Virus record (IMG/VR): IMGVR_UViG_3300033066_000778
Location: 89,959 to 153,958 of that record
DNA: 64,000 bases
Source: a virus
Lineage: Duplodnaviria > Caudoviricetes
Reading direction: 5' to 3' (one strand)
Below the pieces are notes generated by a model. That model worked only from the letters and a program-made list of their open reading frames with translations, did not search any database and was not told the DNA's origin. A program made the position numbers and the translations under genes. Below, one piece after another: positions 27,194-50,770 of the stretch. Every line of letters begins with the position of its first letter. Within the stretch, counting starts at the first letter, position 1.

Positions 27194-27208
27194 ATAGGAA
27201 TCGAACCC
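27194..27208 (+). repeat. dispersed ATRGGAATCGAACC motif, copy 1
   Basis: ATAGGAATCGAACCC. Confidence 0.8.
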
Positions 27209-27271
27209 GTATCGTCGTCAGTAACAGCATCAAATAACAAAGTACAAAAAGCAGTCCTTAAGGAGGACAAA

Positions 27272-27655
27272 ATGAACCAGACCAACATCGACACCAACAC
27301 CGCCGAGGGCTTCATCAACAAGCTGACCGCTCAGGGTCAGTACGATTACTTCCGCCTTCACCGCTTCGCCGGTCACAACACCTTCGGGGGAACGCTGATC
27401 AAGGTTCAGCGGGGTGTCCCCGAACAGTACAAGGCCAACTTCCCCGATTGTCAGGACAGGTACTTCCTGTCGATCTGGAAGTACACCGAAGTGGCAGGGA
27501 ACGTCACCCTCACCACGAGACTGTCGAAGGAGACGATGCACTTCGACAAGGACACGGCTGTCCTCATGCTCAAGCTGATGGGCCTGAAGTGGGGAGGCAT
27601 CGTGGCATCGAAGCACAACCCCGTCAACACCCCGAAGGCCAACAACAACTTCTAA
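27272..27655 (+). CDS. hypothetical protein, paralog of 26489..26929
   Basis: AAGGAGG RBS; VQRGVP...YFLSIW...NF*. Confidence 0.75.
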   Translation: MNQTNIDTNTAEGFINKLTAQGQYDYFRLHRFAGHNTFGGTLIKVQRGVPEQYKANFPDCQDRYFLSIWKYTEVAGNVTLTTRLSKETMHFDKDTAVLMLKLMGLKWGGIVASKHNPVNTPKANNNF

Positions 27656-27668
27656 GTAAGTAGTTTAA

Positions 27669-27700
27669 CGGGGCTTAAGGCTGAAAGGTCTTAGGCCCCA
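27669..27700 (+). terminator. hairpin/terminator
   Basis: ggggcttaag/cttaggcccc. Confidence 0.5.
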
Positions 27701-27731
27701 TTATTCCTAACAAAAACTAAAGGAGAATAAA

Positions 27732-28373
27732 ATGAGCCGTTCTTACTCCACCTACAAACGGGATTACGCTTACAAGGTTTCGGACCCTTCGACTCCCGAT
27801 GTGAAGGTTCGGGAATACTTCATCAAGGACAACGAAGAGAAACTGGAACTGTTGGCAAGGAACGAACGGTCTCAGAAGTACAACTACGGGAAACGGGGAT
27901 CGGCAATCATCAAAAGACAGATTGTCGAAGGTGTCTTGAGGAAGACAAAGAACGTTCGGGCTGCTTACCGGGCGTTGATCAAGAAGTCTCCGAAACGTAT
28001 GTGTGCTGAAACAGCATTCGACTGGTTCGGTGTATTGGATATGACCCATTGCACGGAACGAATCGAATGGAGACCGAAGTTCTTTGTGGATGGAGAGAAC
28101 GTTCGTCCTGGTACTGAACTGATCGAGACAGAAGCCCGGAACCCCAAGTGGAAGAGCCTGTGGAATTCCAAACCACCAACACCTGAAGAGGAACTCAAGA
28201 GAAAGAAAAACGATCTCCTCTTGAGTATCAGGGATAACAAGGATTACCTCAGACGGCTCGAATGGAGAAAGGAAACCATCGAGAGGTTCGCCAAGGCAAC
28301 TGTACAGGAAGCAATCGAAAGGACCAACGAAAAGATTGCTGACCTTTACAAGCAACTGAGCAACCTGAAGTAA
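27732..28373 (+). CDS. hypothetical basic protein
   Basis: 213 aa, AAGGAG RBS. Confidence 0.7.
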   Translation: MSRSYSTYKRDYAYKVSDPSTPDVKVREYFIKDNEEKLELLARNERSQKYNYGKRGSAIIKRQIVEGVLRKTKNVRAAYRALIKKSPKRMCAETAFDWFGVLDMTHCTERIEWRPKFFVDGENVRPGTELIETEARNPKWKSLWNSKPPTPEEELKRKKNDLLLSIRDNKDYLRRLEWRKETIERFAKATVQEAIERTNEKIADLYKQLSNLK

Positions 28374-28511
28374 TGGAAATCCAGCACGGTCAGTGCCGAT
28401 GCTGGGATGAGGAATAAAGATGATTGAAAAGTCAATCCTCTGCTTCCTGTGCGTCACAGTATGGATTCTCTTCGTCCGTGACGTCATCAACTTCTACAAG
28501 GAGTACAGGTA

Positions 28512-28868
28512 ATGTTCTTTGATGTCGTTCCCCTCGATGTCATGTATCGCCTTGAAGGGCTCTTTGCCCTTGATGAATACAAGTACGAACTAGATCCAGA
28601 TGAGAAGTATGTTCAACTTGTATGCGATGATGACGTTGCATGGGAGCCCATTGAGTTTCAATACGTAACCCCAAAAGATCAATGGGATATCATGGGGTTA
28701 AGAGAAGCTCAACGGCTCTTTAATGAGCGTGAATACATGAAAGGATTAAGGATAACACAAGACTATGAGGATTACGGGACTGATGGAAACAGATGGTACT
28801 GGCCTGATGATCCACAATTCGATCTTGTAAAGCCAGGTAAGGAAAGAAGGATGCGTAGGTTTAAGTAA
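28512..28868 (+). CDS. hypothetical acidic protein
   Basis: 118 aa. Confidence 0.65.
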   Translation: MFFDVVPLDVMYRLEGLFALDEYKYELDPDEKYVQLVCDDDVAWEPIEFQYVTPKDQWDIMGLREAQRLFNEREYMKGLRITQDYEDYGTDGNRWYWPDDPQFDLVKPGKERRMRRFK

Positions 28869-28886
28869 AGTACGACTAATAGGCGG

Positions 28887-28905
28887 ATGGGAATCGAACC
28901 TTACG
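28887..28905 (+). repeat. dispersed ATRGGAATCGAACC motif, copy 2
   Basis: ATGGGAATCGAACCTTACG. Confidence 0.8.
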
Positions 28906-29430
28906 TATCCTTACATGTGCATAAACAGCTATAGCCCCTATGAAGGGGCTTAAATAGTATACGCACATTAAGAGTGTTTTAACTTTAGTATCTTAGGCTA
29001 ATGATGTTATCACGGCCACATTCCGTCTTAGATCATTATGCTTATTTTACTTTAGTTTTAACTGAACTTTAAGTCATTAAGGATTAAGAGGGGCTTCGGG
29101 GTTAATGAACGCAATGTCAATGTTCCCGATTAGCTCTTTGATCCTAATTACTTTGATTCATCTTCTCTTATGTATAAGTATCTAAGGTTACACATCACGG
29201 ATTAAATAACATTGAACTTTCAAGTAACATGATTACAAACCTATGTCGGCATGCCGACTTAAGGAGGTAATGGATGCATTGGTGTCCATTGGAGACATTG
29301 GCCCTTTCAATGCTCTTTAACCACTTTAATATCATTTGGATGGGCGTAAAGGAGTATATATACGTATTACGGAATAAAATTCTGTAATGACTGTATAGTT
29401 ACAGTCCTTTCGCCTATCAAAACGAATGGA

Positions 29431-29496
29431 ATTAAAGGATTAGGGGATTAAAGGATTAGGGGATTAAAGGATTAGGGGATTAAAGGAAGTAAGGGG
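29431..29496 (+). repeat. 16-bp tandem repeat ATTAAAGGATTAGGGG x3 plus a degenerate fourth copy
   Basis: read directly. Confidence 0.9.
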
Positions 29497-30175
29497 ATGC
29501 GATATACATGGGATTTAACACCGATAGGTAGATGTAACCAATACTTCATATGTAAGGGAAAGGCACGAGAGTTTTCCTTACTGAAGGAGTATAACTACAC
29601 TGCTTATTTCGTACGCGATTCTGGAGATAGCTACACAACGACTGAATTCGGTGATTGGACAGAAGGATGTCTAATCATTACGTTCAAAAACGGAAGGGAA
29701 GTAAAGGAGTTAAGCTCATGTTGAAGACGATCCTGGTTAACAACTTCCAACCAGAAGATCTAAAGAATCAGATTGGTGTCATGAAAGATATGGACATCAC
29801 TTTGATCTTCAATGTCCGTTCACTTGAAGGGTTGATTCGGGAGCTTCGTGAGTACTGTGACTGTATGGATAAAGTTCTTCAAGAACATTTGGATGCAGAA
29901 AGACCTAACTCTTACTTCATCCCTGGTGGTATAAAGGAATGGGATGAAAATCAGTATCGAATGAAGCGTGGTGATCCTCCTGATTGGGCTACGAATCCAA
30001 ACCTTAAGCACATCAAGGAGATCTGAAAATGGAAATCAACCTTAAGAAGCCTTACTTCAACAAAAGGCGTCCTACCTTTGAGGAATATCTGAATTCTACA
30101 TTGCTTTCATGGGACTTAACTGGCGTATCTACCAAGAGTACATCGAGAAGTAGAAAGGTATAAGGAGTAAAAGAA

Positions 30176-30622
30176 ATGAGTAATGTTCCTTCATACTTCC
30201 TTCGTGGTTACTGCAAGGTTGGTCAACTCTTCCAGCCTAAAGCATCACATCACTCTGCATGGGGGAGTCGGCAGGTATGGGAGATTGTCTCCGTACATGA
30301 GGGAGGGAAGGACGGATTGTTTACCCTTCGCCTCTTTGGTGATCCTGAAGAGATCTTTAATCCGGACGACGCGGATGCGAAAGACTTTGACAAGTGCGTC
30401 CGTGCTTATACTCTGTACACTGCTTACAAGGTAGTGGACAGAAAGAAGTACGTTGAGGCTATCGCAAAGGTCAATGAGGTGAAAGAGGCAACGGTCAAAG
30501 CTAACGTGAAACAGAAAAGAACTGAGTTGATTGAGGAACTGGAGAAGCAAGCGTACAGTATCCGTTTACTCTCCATCGCATACGAAGAGACAGTTAACAA
30601 ACTGAAAGGATTGGAGGTATGA
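30176..30622 (+). CDS. hypothetical protein
   Basis: 148 aa, TAAGGAG RBS. Confidence 0.7.
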   Translation: MSNVPSYFLRGYCKVGQLFQPKASHHSAWGSRQVWEIVSVHEGGKDGLFTLRLFGDPEEIFNPDDADAKDFDKCVRAYTLYTAYKVVDRKKYVEAIAKVNEVKEATVKANVKQKRTELIEELEKQAYSIRLLSIAYEETVNKLKGLEV

Positions 30623-30623
30623 C

Positions 30624-30896
30624 ATGTGGGGATTGATTGGTATCGCTATCCGTTCGGTGGTTGATGCTTTCATTGGTGGTACGGGGGTATCGACTACCGA
30701 TCGTACCTATCGTGGTAACAACTGTTATCATTGTGGACATGGATACATGAAGGTATTCAGTGGTTACAATGGTACATCGTGGTATGCTCTCGTAACCTGT
30801 GATCGTTGCGGTCATTCTTCTCCATGCGGTTATGGAAAGAACGAAGACGACGCCAAGAGTAACGCAGTCTCTATTTGGAATACAATGGAGGAGTAG
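30624..30896 (+). CDS. Lar (restriction-alleviation)-like Zn ribbon
   Basis: CYHCG...VTCDRCG...AVSIWN pattern. Confidence 0.5.
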   Translation: MWGLIGIAIRSVVDAFIGGTGVSTTDRTYRGNNCYHCGHGYMKVFSGYNGTSWYALVTCDRCGHSSPCGYGKNEDDAKSNAVSIWNTMEE

Positions 30897-31165
30897 ACAA
30901 TGTTTGTGTTTGATGAAGTTGAAGAAGAGCCCATTGACCCTGAGAAGTTTAAGCCTGGGTCATTTGGTTGTCATGAACTGTTGGACAGAACGAACTTGAT
31001 CATCAACATGATTGATAGGGAGATTCTTCAACATCCTTCCTGTCAAATGAATCCCAAGTGGCTTAAGCTTGCTAACAAAGCGTCTGAAGCCCTTGGTAAG
31101 CTGTACGTCGCTGTCGGAACAAAGCATCTGTAATAATAACGAGTAAAGAAAGAAGGAGTAAAGAA

Positions 31166-31603
31166 ATGAAAAAGAATACCCTCACCCGTGCCCAGGCCAA
31201 GTACTTCAACGAGAAGCTCACGAGCCTTGAGTATGTCCTCCATGATATCAAGACGGGTGGTAAGAAGGTTACCATCCCGGTCAATGAGATCAAGGATGCC
31301 ATCTTCACAGCATCAACGAAGATCACTCACGATCATGAGCTTAAGGTTCCGTACACCAAGGATTCATACTGTTTTGGCGCTGGCTATAACATCCATGTTG
31401 ACCTTACCACGACGCCGACATACAAGAAGGCCCTTGCTGAAGTACAGGGGAGTAAGGCTACCAAAGAAAGAAACAACATGATTGATACGTACCAGAAGCT
31501 GATTGAGGAGTTCAGGCTCAAGCTCATCTTCGGTACTGAAGCCAACGCCCTCCTCGATGAACTGAACAACCTTACCAACGCCATCAACAAGCTCATGGAC
31601 TAA
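31166..31603 (+). CDS. hypothetical protein
   Basis: 145 aa, AAGGAG RBS. Confidence 0.7.
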   Translation: MKKNTLTRAQAKYFNEKLTSLEYVLHDIKTGGKKVTIPVNEIKDAIFTASTKITHDHELKVPYTKDSYCFGAGYNIHVDLTTTPTYKKALAEVQGSKATKERNNMIDTYQKLIEEFRLKLIFGTEANALLDELNNLTNAINKLMD

Positions 31604-31613
31604 GGAGTAAAAG

Positions 31614-31871
31614 ATGTACGAGATCAAGAAGGTTGACGACTGTTCAGGTGACCAACTCGCTTTCGCTGTCAACCATGATAGCATGAAGATCATCGTGGGT
31701 AAGTCTGGTCACGCTAAGCTGCTTAACATCGTAGCAGCGGAGCCGATTGATTACCCAACTGGCGGATGGATCTTTCGCCGGAAGGGACAGATTGCCGACA
31801 GTGGAATGTTAAAGAAGGTTAAGCAGGATAGGGAAGAGATCGTCGAGATGCTTAAGATGATCTTCTGCTAA
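31614..31871 (+). CDS. hypothetical protein
   Basis: 85 aa, TAAGGAG RBS. Confidence 0.65.
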   Translation: MYEIKKVDDCSGDQLAFAVNHDSMKIIVGKSGHAKLLNIVAAEPIDYPTGGWIFRRKGQIADSGMLKKVKQDREEIVEMLKMIFC

Positions 31872-31880
31872 TACCTTAGC

Positions 31881-31899
31881 ATGGGAATCGAACCTTACG
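31881..31899 (+). repeat. dispersed ATRGGAATCGAACC motif, copy 3
   Basis: ATGGGAATCGAACCTTACG (19 bp identical to copy 2). Confidence 0.8.
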
Positions 31900-32605
31900 C
31901 TTATGTGTACTGTCATTGACTTTACTCTTGAACTACTGTCATGCTCGTGCTATCTGATTAGGGGGAAGTAATGTACAGAATGGAGGTTAAGGTGGGTAAC
32001 GAAAAGGTTCCTGCCATTCAATTCGTAGAGAACAATAACATCGACGTTACCAGTATCGTTGGTAAGACGGTGTTGGCTGTAAAGCTCCATAACTCTAACG
32101 ACTATTGGGGGGATGATGGCTTTACTATCCTCTTCACAGATGGTAGTATCATGACTGTTGGTGCATCCGATGACTGCGGATTTCCAATGGTGAGTACTGC
32201 TGTAAAAGAAAGAGGAGATTAAATGTGGACCTTCTTTATATCATGGAATCGTCACCGATTTGTTTTCGCCCCTTTTTCAGGTGAACTAATCCTCGTCCTG
32301 AATTTTGGGGGATTGCAGATTGGTTGGATGAGGATGGACTTAGAGTATTACCTTGACAACCTCGCTCTATCAATTGAGGAGGAGATAACTGAACGCCTTA
32401 CCAAAGAAAAGAAAGAGGAGGAAGAAGACAATGTTGGATAACATGATAATTAACGGTGATAAGATCTTGAAAGGAATGGAAGAAGATCTGATCACATTTC
32501 AAGCTGAACTTCTCGGAAGAGAGTTTAACACCATGTTAGCGGAGATGCTTAAGACCGAAGAAGCATACTCTGAACTGGTTGAGAAGATTGGAGAGGAGAA
32601 ATAAG

Positions 32606-33070
32606 ATGTACGGATTTCCTACTTGGTCAGCAGATCAGAAGAAACTCCTGGTTGTCGTTGCTGAGGATAAGCTTTCCGATGCAGTCAAGCAGTGGGAAAC
32701 GCTTCCTTATGACTTCGTCAGCTGCATGAAGATCGCAAAGACATTGGTTACTTGTGTAGATGAACGCATCGCACAAGATATCTGTACCGTTTTTGGTGCA
32801 GAGAAGAAGCCTTGCCCTGAATGTCCTCCTGATCTGAACACTTGGATCATCAGTTTCTCCACCGACCAAGACTTCTGTGAGTACCTGTCAATGAGCAACA
32901 TGGCTAACGTCATCTACCTGAATGGTACTTCAGTCTTTAACGTGTCATTCGATGCGATGGCACGTAAGACAATTGAGAAACTTAAGCTCATTGACGATGG
33001 TGAGGTTAAGCACGAAGAGAAACCTATAGATGACGATGCGTGGCTAAAAGATCTTGGCATCGTATCGTAA
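32606..33070 (+). CDS. hypothetical protein
   Basis: GGAGG RBS, MYGFPTW start. Confidence 0.6.
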   Translation: MYGFPTWSADQKKLLVVVAEDKLSDAVKQWETLPYDFVSCMKIAKTLVTCVDERIAQDICTVFGAEKKPCPECPPDLNTWIISFSTDQDFCEYLSMSNMANVIYLNGTSVFNVSFDAMARKTIEKLKLIDDGEVKHEEKPIDDDAWLKDLGIVS

Positions 33071-34800
33071 AAAGAAATGAGGAAAAGAATATAAGAAACA
33101 GTACAAAAGAATCCTACAAGCAACTGATAACACAGTAGTTAATAACATTACTACATTACATCGTAACTAACATAATCCAAGAACAGTATAAGAAACGAAC
33201 AGGCAAGAAGGAGCCTAAGATGATTAAGTTTATCGTCAAGAGTTTGCACAACATTTCTGAATTCCTCCTCTGGAGATCAATCGACATCAGCGAACTCTCA
33301 ATGAAGATTGACGAGTACTTCAAGGAGGATGAAGATGGAAGTACCACCGATAACGTTGAAAGCAATTGTGCGGAGGAACGATCCACTCCGTCCAGAACGA
33401 AGAACATTGACTATAAGAGCCTTAGAGAAAACAACCATCCGGATAAGTCCGGTTACATCAACTGAAGAACCTCCTATGACAATTCGTACGGAGTTTAATG
33501 AAGACGATAGCATCGACAGTGCAAGTCTTCAAACAATCATGGATGCTAAGAAAGTCTTTCTTGGTAACATCCATGGTTATGCACTGACGAAGAGGGGACA
33601 GAACGATAACCATGTTCTAGTAACTCTCCTTAGCTATGATAATGATCATTGGAGAGTGAAAAACGGTATGGTTGTGTACTCCACAAGTTGGATCCAAGAA
33701 GAGATTGCTTTGTTACAGGCAATCGAAACTTGGTGTGAACAAAACTGTGAACCTGATACCGTCTATGATGGCAAACAATACGGATGGGAGTTTAAATGAA
33801 GGCATTCGCTAGACAACGCTTCTATGACATCCATCGTGGAGAAGGGTGTACTACGCGTGAGTACCTTGGTACATTAACGTGTACAACATTCGGACATGTG
33901 GATGAGTTCTATAAGTGTACATGTAATGACCAAATTTCAGTAATTACCTTTCGAAAGAACGAATGCATCGTAGTTTTCTCTAGGCATGGATCTAACGTTG
34001 ATCTCTTTGATCGTTTCTTCGATAGATTCCAACGATTCAAGCACCTAGGGACATACCAAGCCGTAATAGAACAAATGATGGAGGAAAACAAGCGTGCAGA
34101 TCAAGCTTGAAAACTTCAATAACTGTCCTGGCTATAAGGTAGCTAAGGACATCGCAGGAAGTAAAGCCTTGATGGTTGAGGATCTTCCTGACCTTGAGTA
34201 CTGGCAGAACGATGAAGCAACACTTGTACTTTCAATCAATCTGAATACCACGAGGCTTAACATGACGGATGCTTTCACAAAAGTTATTGGTCTCATCTCA
34301 AGGTATAGACCAGATGAAGTCCATAGCCATCCGAAAGGTAATCAACTCTTCTACCGCCTGTGGTGGGATTAAGGAGAAAGAAATGGACACATACATCTAC
34401 ACGCCACAAAACGGAAAGCTTACAAGAGTAACAGCACCAATTGAACGATACTTTATATTGTTCTACGAGAATGATGCTGATATCTCAGATCCTCAAGTAG
34501 CATTTAAATTAGCACAGAAAAGCTTTTATACTGCTGGTGCTTTCTCCTCTCTTATTGATGAAGCACTGATGAACGATCACATCGTCGTCATCAGAAAGTT
34601 AGCTGTAACACCGTAGAAGATAATGCTAACGTGTAACAAAAACGAATACGATAAACTTCAAGAAGACATTCTCTACTTCATACGGACTATGGCAACAGAC
34701 TTCGATCATTATGAAGATGCACATAAGTACCGTACACTTTGTTACGTGTGTGAAGCAGAAGAATTAAATCGTAAACTTGAAATCAAATTCATAGACTAAC

Positions 34801-34817
34801 ATGGGAATCGAACCTTA
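34801..34817 (+). repeat. dispersed ATRGGAATCGAACC motif, copy 4
   Basis: ATGGGAATCGAACCTTA. Confidence 0.8.
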
Positions 34818-34940
34818 ACATTATTTACATAAACATAGGAGTACGCTTAAAGCATACAATCCTCCCAACGTCCGAAGTAAAATTGAAAGTGAGCATGTAT
34901 AAATATGGTACAATTTGCCTATACACATAAGGAAGAGAAG

Positions 34941-35414
34941 ATGGACGTTATCACCTACGAAGAGTTGTCTAACATCCTTCGTAAAGTCCAAGGGGCTCCG
35001 TTCGCTGAGATCATCACCGAGACAGACCTTAGTGATTACCAGTTTACGGACTCACCATTCCTTAACAGGCTTAAGAAGGTAGCGAAGTATACTGTTCAAC
35101 TCGGTGCTTCCTACGAAGAAGCCATGAAGAGCATTAACCCCAACTTCACCATTAAAGATCGCAAGTGGGGCGAACACATCAACAACATCCTTATCGAACA
35201 TAAGGGTAAGTTGTATGTCTCATGTATCATCCAGAGAAAACACTTTTCTTTCCTCAAAGTTGGAAAGGACAAAGTAACGGATGAGATGGAGAAACAAATC
35301 AAGCCTTACTTGAAACCACTGGAAGAACCTAGTAACCCTGTTGGATACCGTAGGTTTAAGATCTACAGCATCAAACAGATTTCTTTCAATAACAAATCGT
35401 ATATGATCCTGTAA
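34941..35414 (+). CDS. hypothetical phage protein
   Basis: TAAGGA RBS, MDVITY start. Confidence 0.65.
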   Translation: MDVITYEELSNILRKVQGAPFAEIITETDLSDYQFTDSPFLNRLKKVAKYTVQLGASYEEAMKSINPNFTIKDRKWGEHINNILIEHKGKLYVSCIIQRKHFSFLKVGKDKVTDEMEKQIKPYLKPLEEPSNPVGYRRFKIYSIKQISFNNKSYMIL

Positions 35415-35891
35415 GGAGTAAACATGAAAAGAGCTAGTGAACTTACCTTCTTGAAATGGTTTTACTCTCACGCTGACTTTGGTCCAGCTGAAGGAGATGT
35501 AAGAGTTGGATTGAAGCTAGACTTCGTTGAACAGACGGGAACTCTCCTACCTAAAGGGTACGAAATAGATCCTGACGAAGTTGTTGAAAACGATATCGAG
35601 GATGAGGAGTAAACGTGAAAGAAACCGTTGCATACACCCAGTACATGAAAAACTTGGAGAAGGAAGCTAAGCTCTTCAAGACTATCAAGTACATCACCGA
35701 GTTCCTCACGGATGAAAATCCTTACGATGATGACGAGAATCCGAAAGTATCGTGTGATGTAAATAACAGTACCGTTTTAATCATGTCTCCTGACCTTATT
35801 ATTTCAATCTTCAAGCGTTAATATTACACCTGAACCCCGTAACCAAACAATAACAACAACAAGTACAACCAACAAGTAAGAAAGGAAGCAC

Positions 35892-36995: not shown

Positions 36996-37009
36996 TCTCT
37001 AAGTAAACG

Positions 37010-37039
37010 AGGGGGTTAATTAGAAATAGTTAACCCCCT
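37010..37039 (+). terminator. hairpin, exact duplicate of 39413-39442
   Basis: AGGGGGTTAATTAGAAATAGTTAACCCCCT. Confidence 0.75.
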
Positions 37040-37058
37040 CTTTCCTATCAAGGAGTAT

Positions 37059-39403: not shown

Positions 39404-39412
39404 CTAATCAAC

Positions 39413-39442
39413 AGGGGGTTAATTAGAAATAGTTAACCCCCT
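39413..39442 (+). terminator. hairpin, exact duplicate of 37010-37039
   Basis: AGGGGGTTAATTAGAAATAGTTAACCCCCT. Confidence 0.75.
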
Positions 39443-39514
39443 TCTCCCTTATCTATAATTTCCTGGGCGTACATAACTGAAATTATTAACCCGTACAACT
39501 AAGGAGTATACAAA

Positions 39515-40492: not shown

Positions 40493-40506
40493 TTCAACTG
40501 AAGGAT

Positions 40507-40546
40507 AGGGGATACGTAGAGTATATGTATCCCCTTCTTTCTTTTT
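40507..40546 (+). terminator. intrinsic terminator
   Basis: aggggatac/gtatcccct followed by a T-tract. Confidence 0.7.
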
Positions 40547-40563
40547 AATTACTGGAGATTAAG

Positions 40564-41133
40564 ATGCCAAGAACTAAGTTTACATTCGACACTACTATTA
40601 AGATTGGCCCTTTCAAGTTTAACCTAGCTGAATCAACTTACAATTGTATCTACTGTGGTAACCCAGCGACGCTGAAGATGCTGGTAACAAAGAATCCTAA
40701 GTTGGCTAGTATCTTCAGACGTGAGGATATGAGATGGATGACTAATCATGCAAGGTTCTGCTCAACCAATTGTATCAAGGGTGAACTACTCAAGAAGTTC
40801 TTTGAGCTTAAGGTTCAAACAACTGACCTTAAGGTTGAGCAGTACCTCATGGAGCCTGATGACAATAGTAACATCGTTGTTAAACAACCTGTAATCCTAA
40901 ATACTACAGCACTATATGCAGCTAAACCATACAGGAAAGAAAGGATTATAACCTTCTCCTCTTATGGTCCTACCTTCGCTCCTTATCTTGTTGTTCATGC
41001 TCAAAAGATTGAAACTAAATGGGGAGGACATACCCAATCATACTGGATGCCTGAAGGTATCAATCTTTACACTGAAGGCGAGTTTGATCAAGTATACGCA
41101 CCTACTTGTAAACCTAACCGACTTGTACGATAG
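40564..41133 (+). CDS. long-form FCS Zn-finger protein (paralog of 49104 and 49606)
   Basis: KIGPF...CIYC...FCSTNCIK. Confidence 0.7.
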   Translation: MPRTKFTFDTTIKIGPFKFNLAESTYNCIYCGNPATLKMLVTKNPKLASIFRREDMRWMTNHARFCSTNCIKGELLKKFFELKVQTTDLKVEQYLMEPDDNSNIVVKQPVILNTTALYAAKPYRKERIITFSSYGPTFAPYLVVHAQKIETKWGGHTQSYWMPEGINLYTEGEFDQVYAPTCKPNRLVR

Positions 41134-41145
41134 GAATCGAACCTT
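41130..41145 (+). repeat. dispersed ATRGGAATCGAACC motif, copy 5
   Basis: ATAGGAATCGAACCTT overlapping a stop codon. Confidence 0.8.
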
Positions 41146-41421
41146 GTGTACATCTTAAATATTTACTATACATGCGTACCACTACCAATGGTAAGTCGTA
41201 CGTGCGCTTACTGCACTTATCCTATTGAAGTTGGTCCTGCATACTGTACCGTAGCTCAATTCAGTAAATTCGCACGACGAACAACGATGCCATTCATAAA
41301 GATCTTTTGTAGTAGAGAGCACTTTCTTTTATTCATAGATGAAGAAACAGACTATACTGTTGTTGGCTGTAATATGGATGTAATATATAGGATTATGGAT
41401 CCAACAGATCATCTACCATGA
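41146..41421 (+). CDS. degenerate FCS Zn-finger protein
   Basis: CAYC...FCSREH. Confidence 0.6.
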   Translation: MYILNIYYTCVPLPMVSRTCAYCTYPIEVGPAYCTVAQFSKFARRTTMPFIKIFCSREHFLLFIDEETDYTVVGCNMDVIYRIMDPTDHLP

Positions 41422-42014
41422 AAGAGATCTATACTCTAAACAGATTCTTTTCTACTCAACTATATTCCATCCTTCCAGAAACTCCTTTCTTCTGTCAAAC
41501 GTGTGAAGAAAAAAAGGTTATAAAGGATGGTAATGTAATAATGGCGTCCTTTAATTACGTATTAAAAGGACGTATGCATTACTTTTCCCATACCTTTTAC
41601 TTCTGTACCAGTGCAGAACTACTTGACTTCTTTCAAAAGAACAACGACTATATCGTAACAGGTATGACGCTAAATTCCTTCAAACAACAGGGCAAACCTA
41701 AAGGAAAAAAAGGAGAAGAAGAAATGGAAAATCCTAAGTTTCAGATTGAGAACAGCCCGACGTACTACCCATTCATCAAGAAGCTCGCTAACCGCTGCTT
41801 GGTGTGTATGAAGAAGAGCGAAGAAGGTAACGAAGATATCGTTTCCGTTTTCGATCCTGAACAGAAAACTTATATCCTTGCTGGTATCACTTGTAAGGAC
41901 TCTCACTGCGGAACAATGTTCATGCTCGCCAACGCCCATAAGGAAGCATACGTTATCCTTGAGGAGCAACTGAATGCCATCGCAGAGTACGAAGAAGAGC
42001 GCGCTAAGAAATAA
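41418..42014 (+). CDS. two fused Zn-finger units (internal RBS/ATG near 41724)
   Basis: CQTC...FCTS and CLVC...CKDSHC. Confidence 0.55.
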   Translation: MKEIYTLNRFFSTQLYSILPETPFFCQTCEEKKVIKDGNVIMASFNYVLKGRMHYFSHTFYFCTSAELLDFFQKNNDYIVTGMTLNSFKQQGKPKGKKGEEEMENPKFQIENSPTYYPFIKKLANRCLVCMKKSEEGNEDIVSVFDPEQKTYILAGITCKDSHCGTMFMLANAHKEAYVILEEQLNAIAEYEEERAKK

Positions 42015-44318: not shown

Positions 44319-45862
44319 ATTTAATATCACTACGTAATGATCGACTTGTAGTTCGTTTTGACTACGACCCTGGATATATTATCAGGGTTGGTAACATTCC
44401 ATCAGCTAAGTATGATAGTACTAATAAACTTTGGACGGTTGGTGTAGAATATCTTGACGGGGTCTTGTTTAACTTTCCTGACTTTCCTATTACTTCAGAT
44501 GTACAAAACATTCTCAGTAAAAGAAAGACAGTAAAGTTTATTGACAAGGCTCCTGAAAGTATCAATGGCATTAAGCTCTACCAACATCAGATAGATAATG
44601 TCAATACCATTCTTAACAAGAAGAAAGTCCTACTGGCTGATGAACAAGGATTGGGTAAGACGTATTCAGCCCTAGTAGCGGCTGAGCTTGCTAAGCTTCC
44701 TGTATACATTATTGCACCTAAGTCCCTTCATGCTATGTGGCGTAAGGAAGCAGAAGCGGTAGGCATCGAACCCGCCGATATAATTTCATGGGCTAAAATC
44801 CCTGATCCCCCTGATGATCCTAATATCTTCTGTATCCTTGATGAAGCTCATGCATTACAGAATATGCGGAGTAAACGAACACAAGACGTAATCTACTTCT
44901 GTAAAGAAGCTCCCATGATCGTGGCTATGACAGGTACACCACTTAAGAACGGTAGGCCAATAAATCTCTTTGGTATTCTTACAGTACTTAAGCATCCCTT
45001 GTCTTATAGCAAAAGACTCTATGAAGTAAATTACTGTAATGCCAAACCTACTAGGTTTACCAAATGGGATTGTAACGGTGCTAGTAACCTTCATGATCTT
45101 TACACCAAAGTGTCCAATATTCTAATTCGACATCGTAAAGAAGATTGTCTTGATCTTCCCGATAAGACTCGTGTAATCCGTGAAGCCGAACTTACAGCAG
45201 AAGCTAAGCGAATCTTTAATAGTACAATGACAAGATATGCTAATGAATGGCGAGAGAAAGTAAGGAAGGGTTGGGTTAACCCTCATGCTGAAAAGCTCGT
45301 TATGTACAGCGCATGTCGTCAAGCAGCATCATTGGCGAAGATCCCATCAGCCGTAGAGATAGCTGAAGAGCTTTACGATAATAATAGGCAAGGAGTATTC
45401 TTCGTATCTTACCGTCAAAGTGCTAATGCCCTTGCTGAGAAGCTGAGAGAACTCGGATATAGCGTAGGAGTAATTACAGGGGATTACAGCATCAATCAAA
45501 GGAACGAAAGTATTACTAAGTTTCAAGCTAGTAAAGACAACTTTATTATCTGTACCTTTGAAGCTGGTGGTGTAGGCATTACTCTTACTGCTGCAAGTTA
45601 TGTAACGCTCGTGGATAGGGCATGGACTCCCGGTATTGTTCTTCAAGCAGAAGATCGGGTACATCGCATCTCTCAAAAGAATGCGGTTACGAGTACTTGG
45701 CTCAGTATTCCAGCATATGATGATCCGATTGATCAGATGCTCATTGACAAATCCAAGAATATCTCTCATGTTCTTACAGGTAATCCTGAAATGGAAAAGA
45801 TAGAACTCGGATCGTCTAATGAGCTTGACTCAGTCTTCAGTAAGATCTTCATGAACTTCTGA
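44315..45862 (+). CDS. SNF2-family helicase with N-terminal HARP domain (SMARCAL1-like)
   Basis: VRFDYD..YD...KLW, LADEQGLGKT, DEAH, TGTP, QAEDRVHRI. Confidence 0.9.
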   Translation: MNLISLRNDRLVVRFDYDPGYIIRVGNIPSAKYDSTNKLWTVGVEYLDGVLFNFPDFPITSDVQNILSKRKTVKFIDKAPESINGIKLYQHQIDNVNTILNKKKVLLADEQGLGKTYSALVAAELAKLPVYIIAPKSLHAMWRKEAEAVGIEPADIISWAKIPDPPDDPNIFCILDEAHALQNMRSKRTQDVIYFCKEAPMIVAMTGTPLKNGRPINLFGILTVLKHPLSYSKRLYEVNYCNAKPTRFTKWDCNGASNLHDLYTKVSNILIRHRKEDCLDLPDKTRVIREAELTAEAKRIFNSTMTRYANEWREKVRKGWVNPHAEKLVMYSACRQAASLAKIPSAVEIAEELYDNNRQGVFFVSYRQSANALAEKLRELGYSVGVITGDYSINQRNESITKFQASKDNFIICTFEAGGVGITLTAASYVTLVDRAWTPGIVLQAEDRVHRISQKNAVTSTWLSIPAYDDPIDQMLIDKSKNISHVLTGNPEMEKIELGSSNELDSVFSKIFMNF

Positions 45863-45863
45863 T

Positions 45864-47453
45864 ATGAACTACTACACGATTGCAACGATAATCCGCTCTA
45901 TCACTTATGATTGTTGTAATTGTAAGATGAGTTTAGCTCCGTCTATTCAAGTAAGAGCTAAAGTACATAATAGGCCGTCTAACTATCATAGGCCGTCTAA
46001 CTATCCTCACTACATGAGTTTCTGTGCTACTTGCTTCAAACATTTAATGGAGCAAGCTAATGTATATGTAGTTACAAGACGGCATATAGATTTAATGGCA
46101 GAGATCTATGACAGCACTGATAATACAAGACTTTACTGACTCCATCTTCTGGCGTTGTCGTATATGTGAATGCTCAACAAGAGAAACAGTTGGTTATCAA
46201 CTATTAAGGGATCGTAATTTTGTACCGTCAGTAATTTGTGTATATTGCACGAAGAATCAAGTCAGTAGTTACCCTACATATACTACTCATATTAGATTCC
46301 GTGAATTTCAACTGCTTGCCCAGAAGTTTTTGAAAGACTGATATGTATAATATAATCCGTGACTTTCTAGTAGACACGTCATGGGTGTGTAGTGAATGTG
46401 ACATAAGAGATATAAATACTGTTGGCGTAGAAGTAAAAAACTCCATTATAGGAGCCCTACCATCGGTGTATTGTCTAAACTGCTTTCTACGTAAGTTAAA
46501 AGGTATGGACACATATGCTCTTCGTATTAAGAATTCTGAATTAGAAAGTCTCATTACAAAATATGTATTCCTTAATTGAAGATGCAATTGTCGATAGTGA
46601 AGACCAATGGGGATGTGACGATTGTAAAAGATCAATCGTTACGTCTATGAAACTTACACGACGGAATGAAGGCATAACTATTAGAGGTTACGTTTCATGT
46701 GTTCGCTGCCTTAGAAAATTATTCCTTAGCCAACCAGTTTATGCATACAAAATGAAGAAAAAAGATTTTAGTGCCTTAGTTAAACTCTTCAGAAACAGAA
46801 AATGATAATAAAATACATTCAGCATGAAATAAAAACTATGTGGAAGGGAAGATGCTTTTTCTGTAGACGATGCGTAAGCTATTTTGTAGCTATCTACGAA
46901 AAAGACGGAGGTAGATGGAGTTGTATGCGCTGTCTGAAAAAAAACTTGACTACTGCATACGTAAGTGATATACCTATTCGTGACTTTAAGGCTATTGTAC
47001 TTAAGCTAAAGTTAAAATGAATATAGAATCTTATGTAGCTAATGATTCACAAGGTGTTCCTTGTTTATACTGTCACAACTGTCACAGTCGATCAACAGAA
47101 GTTGTTATTGGTTTAAGATCTCATAGTATATGGGCTGTCTGTATCCCATGCCTAAGAAAACATATTACAAACATAACGATATGTTATATGGCCTTAGGTA
47201 ACTTTAAGGCCCTTATAAACAGATTGAACTTAACATGAATGTACAAGCATACATAAGAGAAGATCCGTATAAAGCACCATGTTACTATTGCCAAAGTTTT
47301 CATAAGGCATTTGTTTATGGAGTATTACACTTAGAGTATGTATACTACATTTGTATTCCATGTTTTAAAAAACACATGTCAGAAACTACTATATGTCGAC
47401 TTCGTCGCAGCCACTTTAAGGAACTGGTGCTAGACATGAAACTAAAGAGGTGA
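45864..47453 (+). other. seven tandem CxxC...CxxC Zn-finger paralogs
   Basis: ORFs 45864, 46108, 46343, 46563, 46802, 47017, 47235, each ending in a Y..(I/L)...(D/E)F..L(V/I)-like segment. Confidence 0.75.
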
Positions 47454-48450
47454 GTATGTCAACAGGTTATTGGCCCGTACTTCCTATGCAAGCAAAGACT
47501 GGCTATAAGTTATTTGAAATGACGGATGAAGTTGTAAAGCAAATAACTGCGTCAAATAACTTCATATTCACCTATCATGTTTGTTCTGTATGTGAAAGGA
47601 AAGTTACTTTTAGTAAAGGTAACTATTTACGGTTCTCATATAATTATATGAGTGATGAACTTCCTTCACCTGAGTATAGTAATGACGATTTGAATTTCTG
47701 GCTCAGTAGACTTAAGATCCAACTAATACACACGAATAGATATAGCTTTACTCCTATAGGGTTACTAGCTCTTTGCTCAGAGCAATGTTTGGATCTGCAA
47801 ACGCTCCAACAAGGTGAAGATAGTAATGATTCAACGTTCTTATTCTAGAGTGAATCTGTAATGTCAAAGTTAGGATTAGGATCAGGACTTAACCTTGATA
47901 CAAAAGTCTTTAAGATAGACAACCTCTCTATACATACCATAGCAAAAGAAAGACAAAGAGAAAGATACTGCTGTGTTTGCTACGGTGAAAAGGTATGTGA
48001 ATACTACGTAGAGTTTAGCATACGAAGAAAAGTAGGTTACAATGAGTTTCCTGTTTATACAATAGAAGATATATGCTCGGATACCTGCTGTGATATTGTA
48101 CGGTTAAGGTTTAATCTAGTATGATAACAAAGTTTCTCATTACAAAAAAGTTTCGTGCTCGTTATGAAAAGAAACTTACGATAGGACCAATATACTCTCC
48201 GTGGTGTTGGAAGAACATCTCTCCTCCAGTATGTGATATTTGCGGTGAGTTACTTCCTTCAATAGCTACATACTACTTTGTTATTTCACACCATAAAGCA
48301 ATCATGCCCATTAAACCTGAATACGAAGACTGGTGTCTAAGAATTTATTCTTCACAAGCACACATGGGCTCGGCTGAAGGAGTATATAAAGCTTTCTTTA
48401 TCCATGGTCCCCATAAGCCGTGCAAAGATCTTCTACCACTTCGTTATTAA
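47450..48450 (+). other. three further FCS-type Zn-finger genes
   Basis: 47450 (CSVC..LCSEQCLDL), 47861 (CCVC..ICSDTCCDIVRLR), 48121 (CDIC..HKPCKDLLPLR). Confidence 0.65.
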
Positions 48451-48527
48451 CCCCCTTGAAAAGTAACCTCAAACGTATATATTAACCCTTGCGACCGGAT
48501 AGGTCGTCCATTCCAAAGGAGTACATC

Positions 48528-48920
48528 ATGAACACAAAGAGAAGAGAACACGTTGAAAACTGCCGTAAGGCTTTCGAAGAATTCATGGCGACGAAACCGC
48601 CTGTTATCATCCGCTATATCAAGCGGGGAGCCACCAAGAAGAAGGGCGTAGTCATCGTAGTCAAGAGGGAAGAGGATGAAGAGCCGTACATCGGATGGTC
48701 CCTGTGCCGTAATAAGGAACCCTTCAACAAGTACATTGGTCTTCACCTTGCCATCGAGAGGGCATTCAAGTCTTATCAGGTAGCTGAGGAAGAGGATCTT
48801 ACTAAGCTTATCCCGGTTACGGTATGGAAGGAGCTTGATAAGATGTCCGAAGACGTTGATAAGAAGTTTAAGCTAAGCCCTGAGAAGACGGAACAGATCG
48901 AGTCCACGGACATTTACTAA
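48528..48920 (+). CDS. hypothetical phage protein
   Basis: AAGGAG RBS; IGWSLC...FNKYIGL..A..RA. Confidence 0.65.
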   Translation: MNTKRREHVENCRKAFEEFMATKPPVIIRYIKRGATKKKGVVIVVKREEDEEPYIGWSLCRNKEPFNKYIGLHLAIERAFKSYQVAEEEDLTKLIPVTVWKELDKMSEDVDKKFKLSPEKTEQIESTDIY

Positions 48921-49103
48921 TGGGTTGCTCTAACCCTTACTGCGCTAGCTGTACAAGAGAAGACATAATAAAGCAATGTGAGGAAGAGTATAAGAAACCT
49001 CTAGAAGAACTGAAGAAACTAGTAAGAGCACACCTAGACGGTATAGACGCTAACTCTACATGCGGTTATTCAGAAGAGGTATTACGCGAATGGATGGATA
49101 AGA

Positions 49104-49634
49104 ATGCGTAGTGTAGTACTATCCTTAAAACAATTTGGAGTTAGTTTTCACGTAAGTAACTTCAATACGTATACGTGTGCATACTGTAATAACATCGCAA
49201 GGATGTACTTCTCCCTGAAAACAAAAGTTGGAAAGGTACTGTTTAATACGGATGCCTTCCGTAGTCAGCATAACAGAGCTTTCTGTTCCATTACCTGCTT
49301 CAAAAGATTTTGTTTTCAGGAGATGTTTAAAAACAGAATGGGTTATCACGATGTACTGGAACAGTTACTTAATGATCTAAACCCTGTAGTAATAGTAAAG
49401 GAGTATGAAACTTGTACCGTTAAACTAGAGAAAGGCTTCTCAAAAGATGGTACAGTAATACTCAGTCTCTCCCCTTACTTCAATAAAAAAGGAGAAGACA
49501 GTAAAAGAGATAGAGTAGAGATGGATTGGACCGTAAGGGTATACGTCTTTAGGGGACAAGACGCTCAAGACTTTGGTGAAACACTACTGTCATTAGTGAG
49601 AGACAATGTCGAACAGACTACCACCGACGCTTAA
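49104..49634 (+). CDS. long-form FCS Zn-finger protein
   Basis: KQFG...CAYC...FCSITCFK. Confidence 0.65.
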   Translation: MRSVVLSLKQFGVSFHVSNFNTYTCAYCNNIARMYFSLKTKVGKVLFNTDAFRSQHNRAFCSITCFKRFCFQEMFKNRMGYHDVLEQLLNDLNPVVIVKEYETCTVKLEKGFSKDGTVILSLSPYFNKKGEDSKRDRVEMDWTVRVYVFRGQDAQDFGETLLSLVRDNVEQTTTDA

Positions 49635-50124
49635 AGTAATCAAGTTTGGCCCCTTTTTCGTAAATGTTAAAGGGGCCATTCACCCTTGTGTGGTATGCTC
49701 AGTACCAACATGCTTTAGAGTACCGTTTAATCAGAAGGTAGCTAAAGCTCTATTCGCACGATCATCAGGTCAATCCTATATGTCCCAGACTAAGAGCTAT
49801 ATCTGTTCCGTTAACTGTCTTAAAGCACAGATCTCAGAGAAGCTCTTTAGTCTATCTATTAAACCTACACCAGAGGTTGAAGACTTTCTACTAAACGCCA
49901 AGGATTCTGGCGTAACTTTTAAGTACACACAGACAAAGTTAAAGAACAACATTATAGAAAACCATGTAACCTCTATCTACCAGTTAGATCACAATAACTT
50001 TCTCGTAATTAAAGCGTATAAGTATCTTAACCCAGGATACAACTGGAGAGGTGACGTAGCTATAATGGATATGGAGAACTTCCTAGCTTACAGGGAAGGT
50101 ATTACTTCACTACAGATAGGATAG
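49606..50124 (+). CDS. long-form FCS Zn-finger protein
   Basis: KFGPF...CVVC...ICSVNCLK. Confidence 0.65.
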   Translation: MSNRLPPTLKVIKFGPFFVNVKGAIHPCVVCSVPTCFRVPFNQKVAKALFARSSGQSYMSQTKSYICSVNCLKAQISEKLFSLSIKPTPEVEDFLLNAKDSGVTFKYTQTKLKNNIIENHVTSIYQLDHNNFLVIKAYKYLNPGYNWRGDVAIMDMENFLAYREGITSLQIG

Positions 50125-50740
50125 CCATCTTAAACAAAAGGAGAGAGTAATCCTTCATAAAGTAGGGGTTACTCTCTTCCCACCGTTTACTAATTAGTTT
50201 GGTAGAGGGATCTCTACCTTCGAAGAATGAGTTGATGCAAAACAGTATCAACTCATTTTTGTTTTTATACTTGTTCAAACTAATTACTTTATCTATTATT
50301 AGCGATTGCAATGAGTTAAGGTACGTATAATCGAATTGATTTGAGTTTACAAAGATCTTGTTATCTACGATTTCAGACTCAGTTAGCTCCGAGTTAAGAT
50401 CAGTAAGGTATACAAAGATCGGTTTCTTATTTTTCATTCGATGGTAATGAGTCTTAAAGCTCCAAGACGTTACTTTTACAACAATCGCTATAACCTGGGC
50501 TGGTACTACGGAGATGTCCATTAGCTTTGGTAAGACCGTATAGACATCCAGTCGTACTTGTTGTTGTATGTCTTGGTAGTCCTCATGGTGTTTGTTCTTT
50601 AAGCTCGATGCAATCTTACTAAGTACATTAACGATGAGAGGATCCAATGTCGAATAGATTGTTGTTATCAGTTCCGGTGTTGGCGAGGTCTTGTAAGCTT
50701 GGAACTCGTTGGCAATCACAGCATCGTCTAAACGGAGCAT
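50102..50740 (-). CDS. divergent sigma-70 region-2-like protein
   Basis: LIVNVLSKI...DYQDIQQQVRLDVYTVLPK...IVVKVTSWSFKTHYHR resembles ECF region 2. Confidence 0.5.
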   Translation of the reverse strand: MLRLDDAVIANEFQAYKTSPTPELITTIYSTLDPLIVNVLSKIASSLKNKHHEDYQDIQQQVRLDVYTVLPKLMDISVVPAQVIAIVVKVTSWSFKTHYHRMKNKKPIFVYLTDLNSELTESEIVDNKIFVNSNQFDYTYLNSLQSLIIDKVISLNKYKNKNELILFCINSFFEGRDPSTKLISKRWEESNPYFMKDYSLLLFKMAILSVVK

Positions 50741-50753
50741 ACACACCTTGGGG

Positions 50754-50770
50754 ATGGGAATCGAACCCAT
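50754..50770 (+). repeat. dispersed ATRGGAATCGAACC motif, copy 6
   Basis: ATGGGAATCGAACCCAT (perfect 5-bp T-arm-like palindrome). Confidence 0.8.

Follow-up and report, generated by a model that had tools for sequence, protein, structure and literature searches.

A stop-codon-anchored 14-nucleotide word, conserved in relatives of a T4-like phage and confined to one rightward gene block, as a possible stoperator-like site

Why does a virus that is transcribed almost entirely leftward carry, in its one rightward gene block, repeated copies of a non-palindromic 14-mer whose reverse complement resembles a tRNA T-arm? The source genome is a divergent, novel T4-like myovirus, represented by a record of 153,958 bp (154 kb) that is 83% complete; it carries nine tRNAs and looks lytic. 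The window analyzed here is the stretch of 64,000 nucleotides that covers positions 89,959 to 153,958 of this record, and all coordinates refer to the window. In addition to many small ORFans, the rightward block encodes a MYG1-family protein, a MoxR-type AAA protein, DUF2201/VWA and DUF932 proteins and an SNF2 helicase, and every copy of the word lies within this block or at its right edge:

24395-50124, plus strand: sole rightward gene block of the genome, with many small ORFans and the named genes
27194-27207, plus strand: M1, ATAGGAATCGAACC, 4 nt past the stop of ORF 26959-27189 and 78 nt before ORF 27272-27655
28887-28900, plus strand: M2, ATGGGAATCGAACC, 18 nt past the stop of ORF 28512-28868
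31881-31894, plus strand: M3, ATGGGAATCGAACC, 9 nt past the stop of ORF 31614-31871 and 90 nt before ORF 31971-32222
34801-34814, plus strand: M4, ATGGGAATCGAACC, 1 nt past the stop of ORF 34623-34799
41130-41143, plus strand: M5, ATAGGAATCGAACC, includes the TAG stop of ORF 40564-41133; enclosing stem of 6+3 bp
44759-44772, plus strand: seventh copy, GTAGGCATCGAACC, within the SNF2 helicase gene
50102-50740, minus strand: gp55-like sigma gene, 212 aa, N-terminal domain with sigma region-2 fold
50754-50767, plus strand: M6, ATGGGAATCGAACC (minus strand reads GGTTCGATTCCCAT), 13 nt upstream of the ATG at 50740, the probable true start of the sigma gene

The word ATRGGAATCGAACC occurs six times, always on the plus strand, versus 0.00 copies expected from 100 shuffles. 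These are the six same-orientation copies that a first, sequence-only reading had listed, each found in its place, and the 19 identical nucleotides it had ascribed to two of them are common to M2 and M3. Scanned over the whole record for number and strand bias, the distribution is not random: the 11-mer core GGAATCGAACC is present six times on the plus strand and not once on the minus strand across 153,958 bp, in one block only. It ties, at six copies, with one low-complexity T/C-rich word as the commonest 11-mer of the genome and is the sole word among the top five that is not of low complexity. A lineage-wide consensus, [AG]T[AG]G[GT][AC]ATCGAACC, has seven exact fits, again all on the plus strand and in or at the 26-kb rightward block, and no fit in the remaining 128 kb of the genome. 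The additional fit is GTAGGCATCGAACC at 44759, which departs at two positions from the pattern of the sequence-only reading and is the positional homologue of GTGGTAATCGAACC in the helicase of a distant relative.

Where do the copies sit relative to genes? Five of the six start between -4 and +18 nt relative to the end of a plus-strand stop codon, a range for which about 4.8% of the block positions qualify (P for at least five of six ~1.5e-6), in agreement with the earlier remark that five copies lie within 20 bp of such a stop. Among the relatives, an upstream stop is found at -4 to +18 nt in six of seven scored copies (L047, L044, two in L048, two in L049), the exceptions overall being M6 and the L045 copy (80 nt). 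From the word to the next start there are between 0 and more than 600 nt; M4 precedes the conserved gene d4, whose true start is probably at 34941, by about 140 nt, and M2 is followed some 34 nt downstream by a hairpin (28934-28949) and then by about 600 nt without an ORF. The anchor of the word is the upstream stop codon, not the next start codon. Some relatives have the word directly in front of the next start codon, and at the AAA/VWA junction it is found in L048 and L049, at the place where the window and L044 have strong intrinsic terminator hairpins, which argues for punctuation of cistron ends and not for a promoter.

The word is real, it is conserved in related phages, and it is not the remnant of a tRNA. 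M4 has a conserved counterpart in L047 that overlaps the stop codon, and the interval from geneA to d4 contains small genes that differ in each of four phages and exactly one copy of the word in each. The copy upstream of the sigma-like gene, which the sequence-only reading had placed correctly, is likewise kept in a relative, 13-15 nt before the gene: M6 and its L040 homologue are identical in 14/14 positions and are read in different frames, both flanks have diverged and cannot be aligned, and the two copies each form a hairpin, in M6 with a perfect stem of 5-6 bp, that precedes a U run on the plus strand. L044, from the same sample as L040, has 15 nt in common with this copy. M5 is not conserved in L044. 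At homologous sites it is the word alone that is conserved, as the flanks diverge. In the distant relative, a Logan contig of which 50.2 kb were sampled, seven copies of TGGTAATCGAACC (at most one mismatch) all lie in its rightward block, on the sense strand, and no copy was found in 17 kb of the flanking leftward blocks. Five of these seven are located within real coding sequence, in two reading frames and including the genes for a CCA-adding enzyme and the helicase; with most copies intragenic, the placement at stop codons does not hold there. The word is in sense orientation in six of seven copies in the window genome and in seven of seven in the distant relative. At one homologous spacer it is on the plus strand in L048 and inverted in L049, a single transcript of which carries one copy of each polarity. 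M6, too, runs against its local gene, so that the lineage as a whole does not keep an absolute polarity. The variants differ by lineage as GGA-, GGC- and GGTA-ATCGAACC: GGAATCGAACC is found in the window, L047 and L044/L040, GGCATCGAACC in L045, L049 and one of the two L048 copies (the other being GAGCATCGAACC), and GGTAATCGAACC in the distant relative. Apart from the two forms in L048, the variants are uniform within a genome and differ between lineages, a concerted change that implies a co-evolving trans factor.

What kind of factor could read such a word? By analogy with the stoperators of Cluster A mycobacteriophages, the word may be a stoperator-like polar cis site that is recognized by a trans factor encoded in this lineage of phages, a DNA-binding protein being the likeliest candidate; we regard this reading as tentative. 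A polar binding site for a phage regulator was one of three alternatives that the sequence-only reading had left side by side, and it fits all the data best: the restriction to one block, the strand polarity in two genomes, the concerted variant change and the word-only conservation at homologous sites speak for it. In addition, no sigma-70-type promoter-like match was detected at any copy, and the copies have no conserved RNA fold in common, a significant enclosing stem being present only at M5 and M6, as expected from the earlier statement that the stem is usually not maintained. On this stoperator-like reading, the word would punctuate the boundaries between cistrons in the rightward transcription block, which is non-structural, and a protein bound at the word would halt or attenuate RNA polymerase arriving from one direction. 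M1 to M5 together with the helicase copy could partition the block into units, each about 2-6 kb long, that would be shut off together, and M6 would end rightward transcripts, after their antisense passage through the sigma gene, ahead of the leftward block. That a protein binds the word, that its binding acts on elongation or termination, and which protein this may be is what we infer. If the phage is lytic, as it looks, there is no lysogenic silencing to perform, and a hard transcription stop would be costly in the distant relative, given that five of its seven copies are inside real coding sequence. No HTH_3 match was obtained in the genome, of which the record represents 83%.

Could the word act in RNA instead? 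Copies in the rightward mRNAs (AUGGGAAUCGAACC) might pair with the single complementary copy (GGUUCGAUUCCCAU) at the leader of the sigma gene. M6 RNA is complementary to the other copies because M6 alone sits in the leftward-transcribed region, and the duplex is predicted to comprise 14-16 bp with about -24 to -27 kcal/mol. Located 13-15 nt ahead of the sigma start, GGUUCGAUUCCCAU would fold into a T-arm-like hairpin with a YUNR loop, and abundant rightward transcripts could delay translation of the late sigma or, alternatively, the leader could direct cleavage of the rightward mRNAs. The exact preservation of M6 beside the sigma start in L040 despite diverged flanks, the location of most copies in untranslated spacers where the RNA is accessible, the two polarities on the L049 transcript and the fold of the sigma-like protein, a sigma region 2 close to that of T4 gp55, are all consistent with such a device. 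However, in the 50 kb sampled from the distant relative the complementary copy is missing, both next to the sigma homologue and elsewhere, and five of the copies in this relative are in translated sequence. Moreover, no small-RNA gene, promoter or terminator frames M6, and the sigma gene converges on the last rightward gene with a 23-nt overlap; rightward transcripts overlap the sigma gene in antisense already, which would make a 14-nt trans site redundant. Pairing between the two kinds of copies is thus unlikely, and it is doubtful that early and middle transcripts, with 14-nt tags after their stop codons, titrate or silence the late sigma mRNA through RNA-RNA pairing with the T-arm-shaped leader hairpin. 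If they did, they would constitute an RNA timer for the late-transcription switch in a T4-like phage, with the U-turn of the T-loop co-opted as recognition loop.

Next to be considered is that the word is an activator box or an extended -35-like element for a phage sigma factor or activator, as in middle promoters of the PmSL/MotA type, with the transcript starting about 20 nt downstream. The strict orientation with transcription in one block only would suit a promoter, the word lies 78-140 nt before the next genes of M1, M3 and M4, M1 with its gene and the terminator at 27670 looks like one transcription unit, a CAT is present 20-21 nt past the word in M1 to M4 and in L044, and the phage encodes a sigma-fold protein as well as a weakly Mor-like protein. 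Several sites nevertheless leave no room for initiation and a leader: the ATG follows after 0 nt at the second L048 copy and after 15 nt in L044, and there is no room either at the first L048 copy or at the intergenic copy of the distant relative, where a Shine-Dalgarno sequence begins 1 nt past the word. As a promoter, M6 would drive antisense transcription, and the L049 copy at the homologous spacer is inverted. In T4, the MotA-dependent middle promoter has its box centered near -30 and a TAnnnT 11-13 bp downstream. Across independent sites, neither a -10-like element nor a TAnnnT of the MotA type was found at a fixed distance. MotA, AsiA and T7-type RNA polymerase gave no match in the genome, a weak negative since the control genomes gave none either. 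A promoter element is therefore improbable as well.

The third possibility, a recombination joint, was one of the alternatives of the sequence-only reading, which had pointed to integrases and cassette joints and to synteny breakpoints. The word could be a homology patch or the target of an unrecognized enzyme for swapping cassettes of small genes, or a small mobile unit. Copies cluster in hyperplastic parts of the block, next to genes that have no homologue in relatives; the identity between the window and L047, a 94% relative, rises abruptly from 68% to about 89% precisely at M4; beyond M5 the synteny with L044 is lost; each phage has its own set of genes around the single copy between geneA and d4; and the word is flipped between L048 and L049. 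M1 is enclosed by a segment of 57% G+C that was probably acquired. The breakpoints at M4 and M5 may therefore reflect a passive role like that of PeSL cassettes, for which a function as patches for cassette exchange in T4-type phages was proposed (PMC2839356, PMC4122927). As to an enzyme, neither a tyrosine (PF00589) nor a serine (PF00239) recombinase was found in the 83% complete record, whereas control genomes were positive. Furthermore, a stretch of 14-19 bp is short for exchange by homology, most of the indels that separate the window from L040 or L047 are not flanked by a copy, the synteny around M6 is conserved, and strand polarity and concerted variant change would be left unaccounted for. 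We consider a recombination joint rather improbable.

Another type of polar signal on one strand of the DNA, such as a nick of the T5/phiKMV type, a Chi-like site or a signal for replication or clamp loading, would be in line with the strict strandedness in two genomes, the spacing of mostly 1.7-3 kb and the tolerance within coding sequence in the distant relative, but restriction to one transcription block would not be expected, known Chi sites are far shorter than 14 nt and the anchoring to stop codons would go unexplained, which makes it very unlikely. That the copies are relics of tRNA genes or integrase att cores from a tRNA T-loop can practically be dismissed: although the reverse complement in the window, GGTTCGATTCC(C/T)AT, equals the T-arm consensus and the T-stem of M6 is perfect, neither ARAGORN nor Rfam (E<=10) detected a tRNA-like structure at any of the copies, as the earlier observation of missing tRNA parts had implied, none of the nine phage tRNAs contains this T-arm, no integrase was found in the 83% complete record, and conservation ends at the edges of the word, after 13-15 nt. 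The complementary strand of the distant relative reads GGTTCGATTAC, which breaks the G53:C61 pair, and L045, L048 and L049 read GGTTCGATGCC. Since these variants break the consensus, the T-arm likeness is not a property of the lineage and probably coincidental, which makes the suggested pairing of an mRNA element with tRNA doubtful. Decay of a full tRNA at each copy, considered in the sequence-only reading, was rejected by the same searches.

How does the word compare with known repeated signals of phages? In the c4-type antisense systems of P1/P7 and P4, short target boxes are scattered. As here, short identical boxes are present in several mRNAs and one complementary copy is in a hairpin loop; unlike there, the complementary copy is in an mRNA leader and not in a dedicated small-RNA gene, and the part of the distant relative that was sampled lacks it. 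PeSL and PmSL elements are repeated intergenic sequences beside ORFans in hyperplastic regions of T4-like genomes as well. Some of them coincide with replacement breakpoints between relatives; of the word, M4 is at an identity jump and M5 at a synteny break, and many indels lack a copy at their edges. PeSLs, however, combine a stem-loop with a sigma-70-type (or Mot-box) promoter and a Shine-Dalgarno sequence and are aligned on the downstream gene (PMC2839356, PMC4122927), whereas the word is a bare 14-mer without promoter consensus or constant stem, anchored to the upstream stop. Cluster A stoperators are the sites of L5 gp71-type repressors, 13-mers in short intergenic spaces that are bound by the monomer and whose orientation is tied to the direction of transcription; the bound repressor, a monomeric protein with an HTH and a stoperator domain, blocks elongation in one orientation, and L5 has more than 20 of them genome-wide (PMC9283540). 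In contrast to these, six to seven copies are found here in one 26-kb block of a T4-like, apparently lytic myovirus, the site is putative and known from sequence, most copies are intragenic in the distant relative, and one L049 copy is inverted. Common to both are an asymmetric word of about 13-14 bp that is conserved as sequence and not as fold, copies dispersed over short intergenic spaces, on a stop codon or shortly behind it, and a consensus that varies between related phages; the orientation follows transcription as well, but for M6 and one L049 copy. The shared consensus is one that differs from phage to phage among relatives.

The record (153,958 bp, estimated to be 83% complete), whose final 64 kb form the window, is a very divergent T4-like myovirus, with a gp23-type capsid protein, a gp20-type portal containing an intein, a gp21-type prohead protease and a tail sheath. 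LAGLIDADG homing-endonuclease inteins split two of its minus-strand genes, for a papain-like peptidase (window 6654-8498) and for the portal (genome 83468-86545). Nearly all genes are found on the minus strand, the sole exception being the rightward block, listed here together with the leftward sigma-like gene:

Window ~24395-50124, plus strand: rightward block with many small ORFans, MYG1-family, MoxR-type AAA, DUF2201/VWA, DUF932 and SNF2 helicase genes
Window 50102-50740, minus strand: gp55-like sigma gene, named from the sigma region-2 fold of the predicted model

The helicase has few named homologues, several of them from cyanobacteria.

The window contains six copies of the word ATRGGAATCGAACC (M1 to M6, at 27194, 28887, 31881, 34801, 41130 and 50754), always on the plus strand, and none is expected from 100 dinucleotide-preserving shuffles of the window. 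Over the whole record the core GGAATCGAACC is found six times on the plus and never on the minus strand, and it is the joint commonest 11-mer, tied with one low-complexity T/C-rich word. The six same-strand copies of the sequence-only reading are thus real and not randomly distributed between the strands, and comparison confirms that M2 and M3 have 19 identical bases in common. Its claim that five copies are found near a plus-strand stop codon also holds: five of the six begin from -4 to +18 nt relative to the end of one, a range of starts covering ~4.8% of the block positions (P for at least five of six ~1.5e-6). The upstream stop is the anchor, while the next start codon follows at 0 to more than 600 nt. 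Every copy is located inside the rightward block or 630 nt beyond its last gene, and the genes flanking different copies have no homology to one another. A seventh copy, GTAGGCATCGAACC at 44759 within the helicase gene, has two mismatches to the originally described pattern and fits the lineage-wide consensus exactly. Since the 'IEP' encoded there is common to only 4 of 13 helicase homologues, protein constraint alone is insufficient to explain this copy. A short upstream ORF starting from the ATG of the word (MGIEP...) was rejected, as its length is not kept and it is missing where the word has ATA.

The surroundings of the copies contain further elements. M2 is followed by an ORF-poor stretch of ~600-750 nt (28901-29655), which might encode a non-coding RNA or serve as a binding array, with a terminator-like hairpin at 28934-28949; a 16-nt tandem repeat of the GGATTAAAGGATTAGG type (~4 units) is found near 29428-29492. 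On both sides of M5 three consecutive ORFs (40564-41133, 41146-41421, 41418-42014), all with cysteine-rich FCS/zinc-ribbon-like motifs, form a small paralogous family. An identical 28-nt hairpin, GGGGGTTAATTAGAAATAGTTAACCCCC, is present twice (37011-37038 and 39414-39441), enclosing the DUF2201/VWA gene and the following 358-aa gene, and is a second repeated punctuation element, of terminator type. The segment 24000-28000 has a G+C content of 55-57% compared to ~40% elsewhere, holds a MYG1/UPF0160-family gene (25443-26405, E 1e-74) and was probably acquired recently, though M1 is already in it.

Near and distant searches of the phage collection found no relatives at the DNA level, a search of IMG/VR guided by the helicase protein alone found none either, and the relatives by MCP in IMG/VR were short structural contigs only. 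Relatives were reached via proteins, as fragments of 1-7 kb from closer relatives (loci L040, L044, L045, L047, L048 and L049, the first two from one sample, SRR14932597) and as one distant relative, the 170-kb Logan contig SRR21686414_9969, of which 50.2 kb were sampled. The contig has the core genes of the block at 25-43% identity, and its sampled part contains five exact and two one-mismatch copies of TGGTAATCGAACC, 7/7 on the sense strand of a rightward block and never in 17 kb of flanking leftward blocks. Five of the seven are placed within real coding sequence in two frames (VVIEP, GNRT), including the genes of the CCA-adding enzyme and of the helicase, the latter copy being positionally homologous to the one at 44759. 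At the divergent junction opening this rightward block, ~2.9 kb (4163-7019 of locus L041) are without called genes, the counterpart of the G+C-rich, ORF-poor start of the window's block (24067-24800).

Among the closer relatives, L040, with a sigma protein of 74% identity, keeps the exact 14-mer 15 nt upstream of the sigma start, with both flanks unalignable to those of M6 and in another reading frame, within a C-terminal extension of the upstream ORF. L044 has one copy, 10 nt past a stop codon and 15 nt ahead of the next ORF, and none at the place of M5. In L047 (94% identical in the anchor gene d4) ATAGGAATCGAACC overlaps the stop codon at the place of M4. The variant in L045, L048 and L049 is GGCATCGAACC, the second L048 copy being GAGCATCGAACC; the copies of L048 and L049 begin 0-5 nt past a stop codon, and that of L045 is intergenic, ~80 nt past one. 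In L048 and L049 the word comes next after the stop of the AAA gene, a junction occupied in the window and in L044 by strong intrinsic terminator hairpins. The region ahead of a homologous small gene carries the word in plus orientation in L048 and inverted in L049, where AAGGTTCGATGCCC (571-584) and GGGCATCGAACCTT (2034-2047) form a perfect 14-nt inverted repeat enclosing the small gene and the AAA gene, 1.45 kb in total. Locus L043 was rejected as an unrelated phage, and an IMG/VR contig with a single 17-mer copy is likewise unrelated and was treated as chance. In ~90 further loci retrieved through the AAA alignment ATCGAACC is not enriched (12 on the plus and 17 on the minus strand, versus 14 expected per strand), and their own repeats are unrelated to the word.

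Is the word derived from a tRNA, as its likeness to an antisense T-arm had suggested? This origin was rejected. ARAGORN detects nine tRNAs, all in a leftward cluster (3141-5309) and none at the copies, Rfam (E<=10) gives no tRNA-like match across 24-52 kb, GGTTCGATTCC is in none of the phage's nine tRNAs, and neither tyrosine nor serine recombinases were detected in the 83% complete record. Other tRNA parts are therefore missing at the copies, as first described, and the copies are not pieces of decayed full tRNAs. The Rfam scan, which covered 24000-52000, also listed neither a hammerhead nor any other match within 24000-28221. Folding revealed no structure common to the copies; when the GG/CC pairs were imposed, flanks pair better than shuffled flanks in M5 and M6 only, so that the view of a usually unmaintained stem stands for most copies and not for these two. 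Moreover, the complement in the distant relative, GGTTCGATTAC, breaks the universal G53:C61 pair of the T-arm, and it is probably by coincidence that the window's variant resembles a T-arm. The 164-kb IMG/VR phage G002, with six exact and two one-mismatch copies of GGAATCGAACC, is not an analogue, since true T-arms account for both one-mismatch copies and for all but one of the six exact ones, and it has almost no genes in common with the record. It contains a T-arm-containing element closed by GGGCCTG...CAGGCCC (L034, ~16990-17110), at which ARAGORN calls no tRNA and which may be an unusual tRNA-like RNA.

What, then, could the word do? Comparison of the lineages suggests that it is a functional element of this group of phages. 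Within a genome the variant is constant, changing from one lineage to another, and conservation at homologous sites is limited to the word, both pointing to recognition by a co-evolving trans factor. The word is accompanied neither by a sigma-70-type promoter nor by a -10-like element at constant spacing, the T4 late-promoter TATAAATA is not enriched, and some copies leave no room for a ribosome site or promoter. In rightward direction M6 and its L040 homologue have a hairpin and then a U run. Together with the stop anchoring and the sites where the word replaces a terminator, this would be consistent with polar punctuation at the cistron end. As a candidate mechanism, the protein-bound word might stop or attenuate transcription like a stoperator, the asymmetric repressor-bound site of Cluster A mycobacteriophages, which we tentatively hold to be the best reading, possible rather than probable. 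Two observations speak against a simple hard stop: the location of copies within genes in the distant relative, and the inverted orientation found in L049 and at M6.

M6 deserves separate consideration. According to the alignment with homologues, translation of the leftward sigma-like gene begins at ATG 50740 (212 aa), a start supported by the 74%-identical homologue of likewise exactly 212 aa; the first ATG of the ORF, at 50797, is probably not the start. Read on this strand, M6 is GGTTCGATTCCCAT, with its end 13 nt before the ATG, just upstream of the gene as originally noticed. For the protein Pfam and PHROG gave no match and Foldseek none at E<=0.001; a wider VIA search with the predicted model did match, the N-terminal domain (pLDDT 70-91) aligning with sigma region 2. 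The top 29 structural representatives are nearly all sigma factors (Z 7-10); the match to 7d7d_F, a chain of the T4 gp45-dependent activation complex, has Z 9.6 and rmsd 2.5 Å over 97 residues. By its predicted fold only, the protein may thus be named a very divergent gp55-like factor.

As the sole copy transcribed in the opposite sense, M6 is complementary (14-16 bp) to all other copies, and the rightward copies could pair as RNA with M6 in the sigma leader. The word's location next to the ribosome site of a late-sigma-like gene in two phages and both polarities on one L049 transcript would fit such pairing, which is nevertheless unlikely given 0 complementary copies in the 50 kb sampled of the distant relative. 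The rest of the phage genome contains no partner of complementary sequence. A promoter or activator box, compatible with M1, M3 and M4, does not suit the copies directly adjoining a start codon or Shine-Dalgarno sequence and appears distinctly unlikely. Synteny breakpoints agree in part with a recombination joint like PeSL, the repeated cassette of T4-type phages (PMC4122927): identity jumps from 68% to ~89% at M4, synteny breaks at M5, and variable gene sets surround a single copy between the anchor genes geneA and d4. However, most indels are without the word, no recombinase was detected in the record, and polarity and concerted variant change would be left unexplained, making such a joint quite improbable. 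A nick, Chi-like or replication signal is very improbable, as restriction to one transcription block would be unexpected.

To our knowledge, stoperator-type control is so far known essentially only from temperate actinobacteriophages. Were the word a polar site at which a bound protein stops or attenuates transcription, such control would reach beyond these phages into a large, lytic-looking T4-like lineage whose helicase has mostly cyanobacterial named homologues, and would offer a handle on the temporal programme of phages whose genes, regulators included, are mostly without recognisable family. Should RNA pairing at the late sigma mRNA be true, this would represent a novel type of timing switch. 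On either reading, the lineage variants of the word, which change in concert, provide a natural specificity series for finding its partner.

The closest described system to the word is that of the stoperators of Cluster A mycobacteriophages. These are 13-bp asymmetric sites, each bound by one repressor monomer, which are found in short intergenic spaces, are oriented with transcription and halt elongation in one orientation only (PMC9283540). Their copy number and genome-wide spread are not matched by the word, and membership in the stoperator family is not claimed; the likeness suggested here would be one of mechanism.
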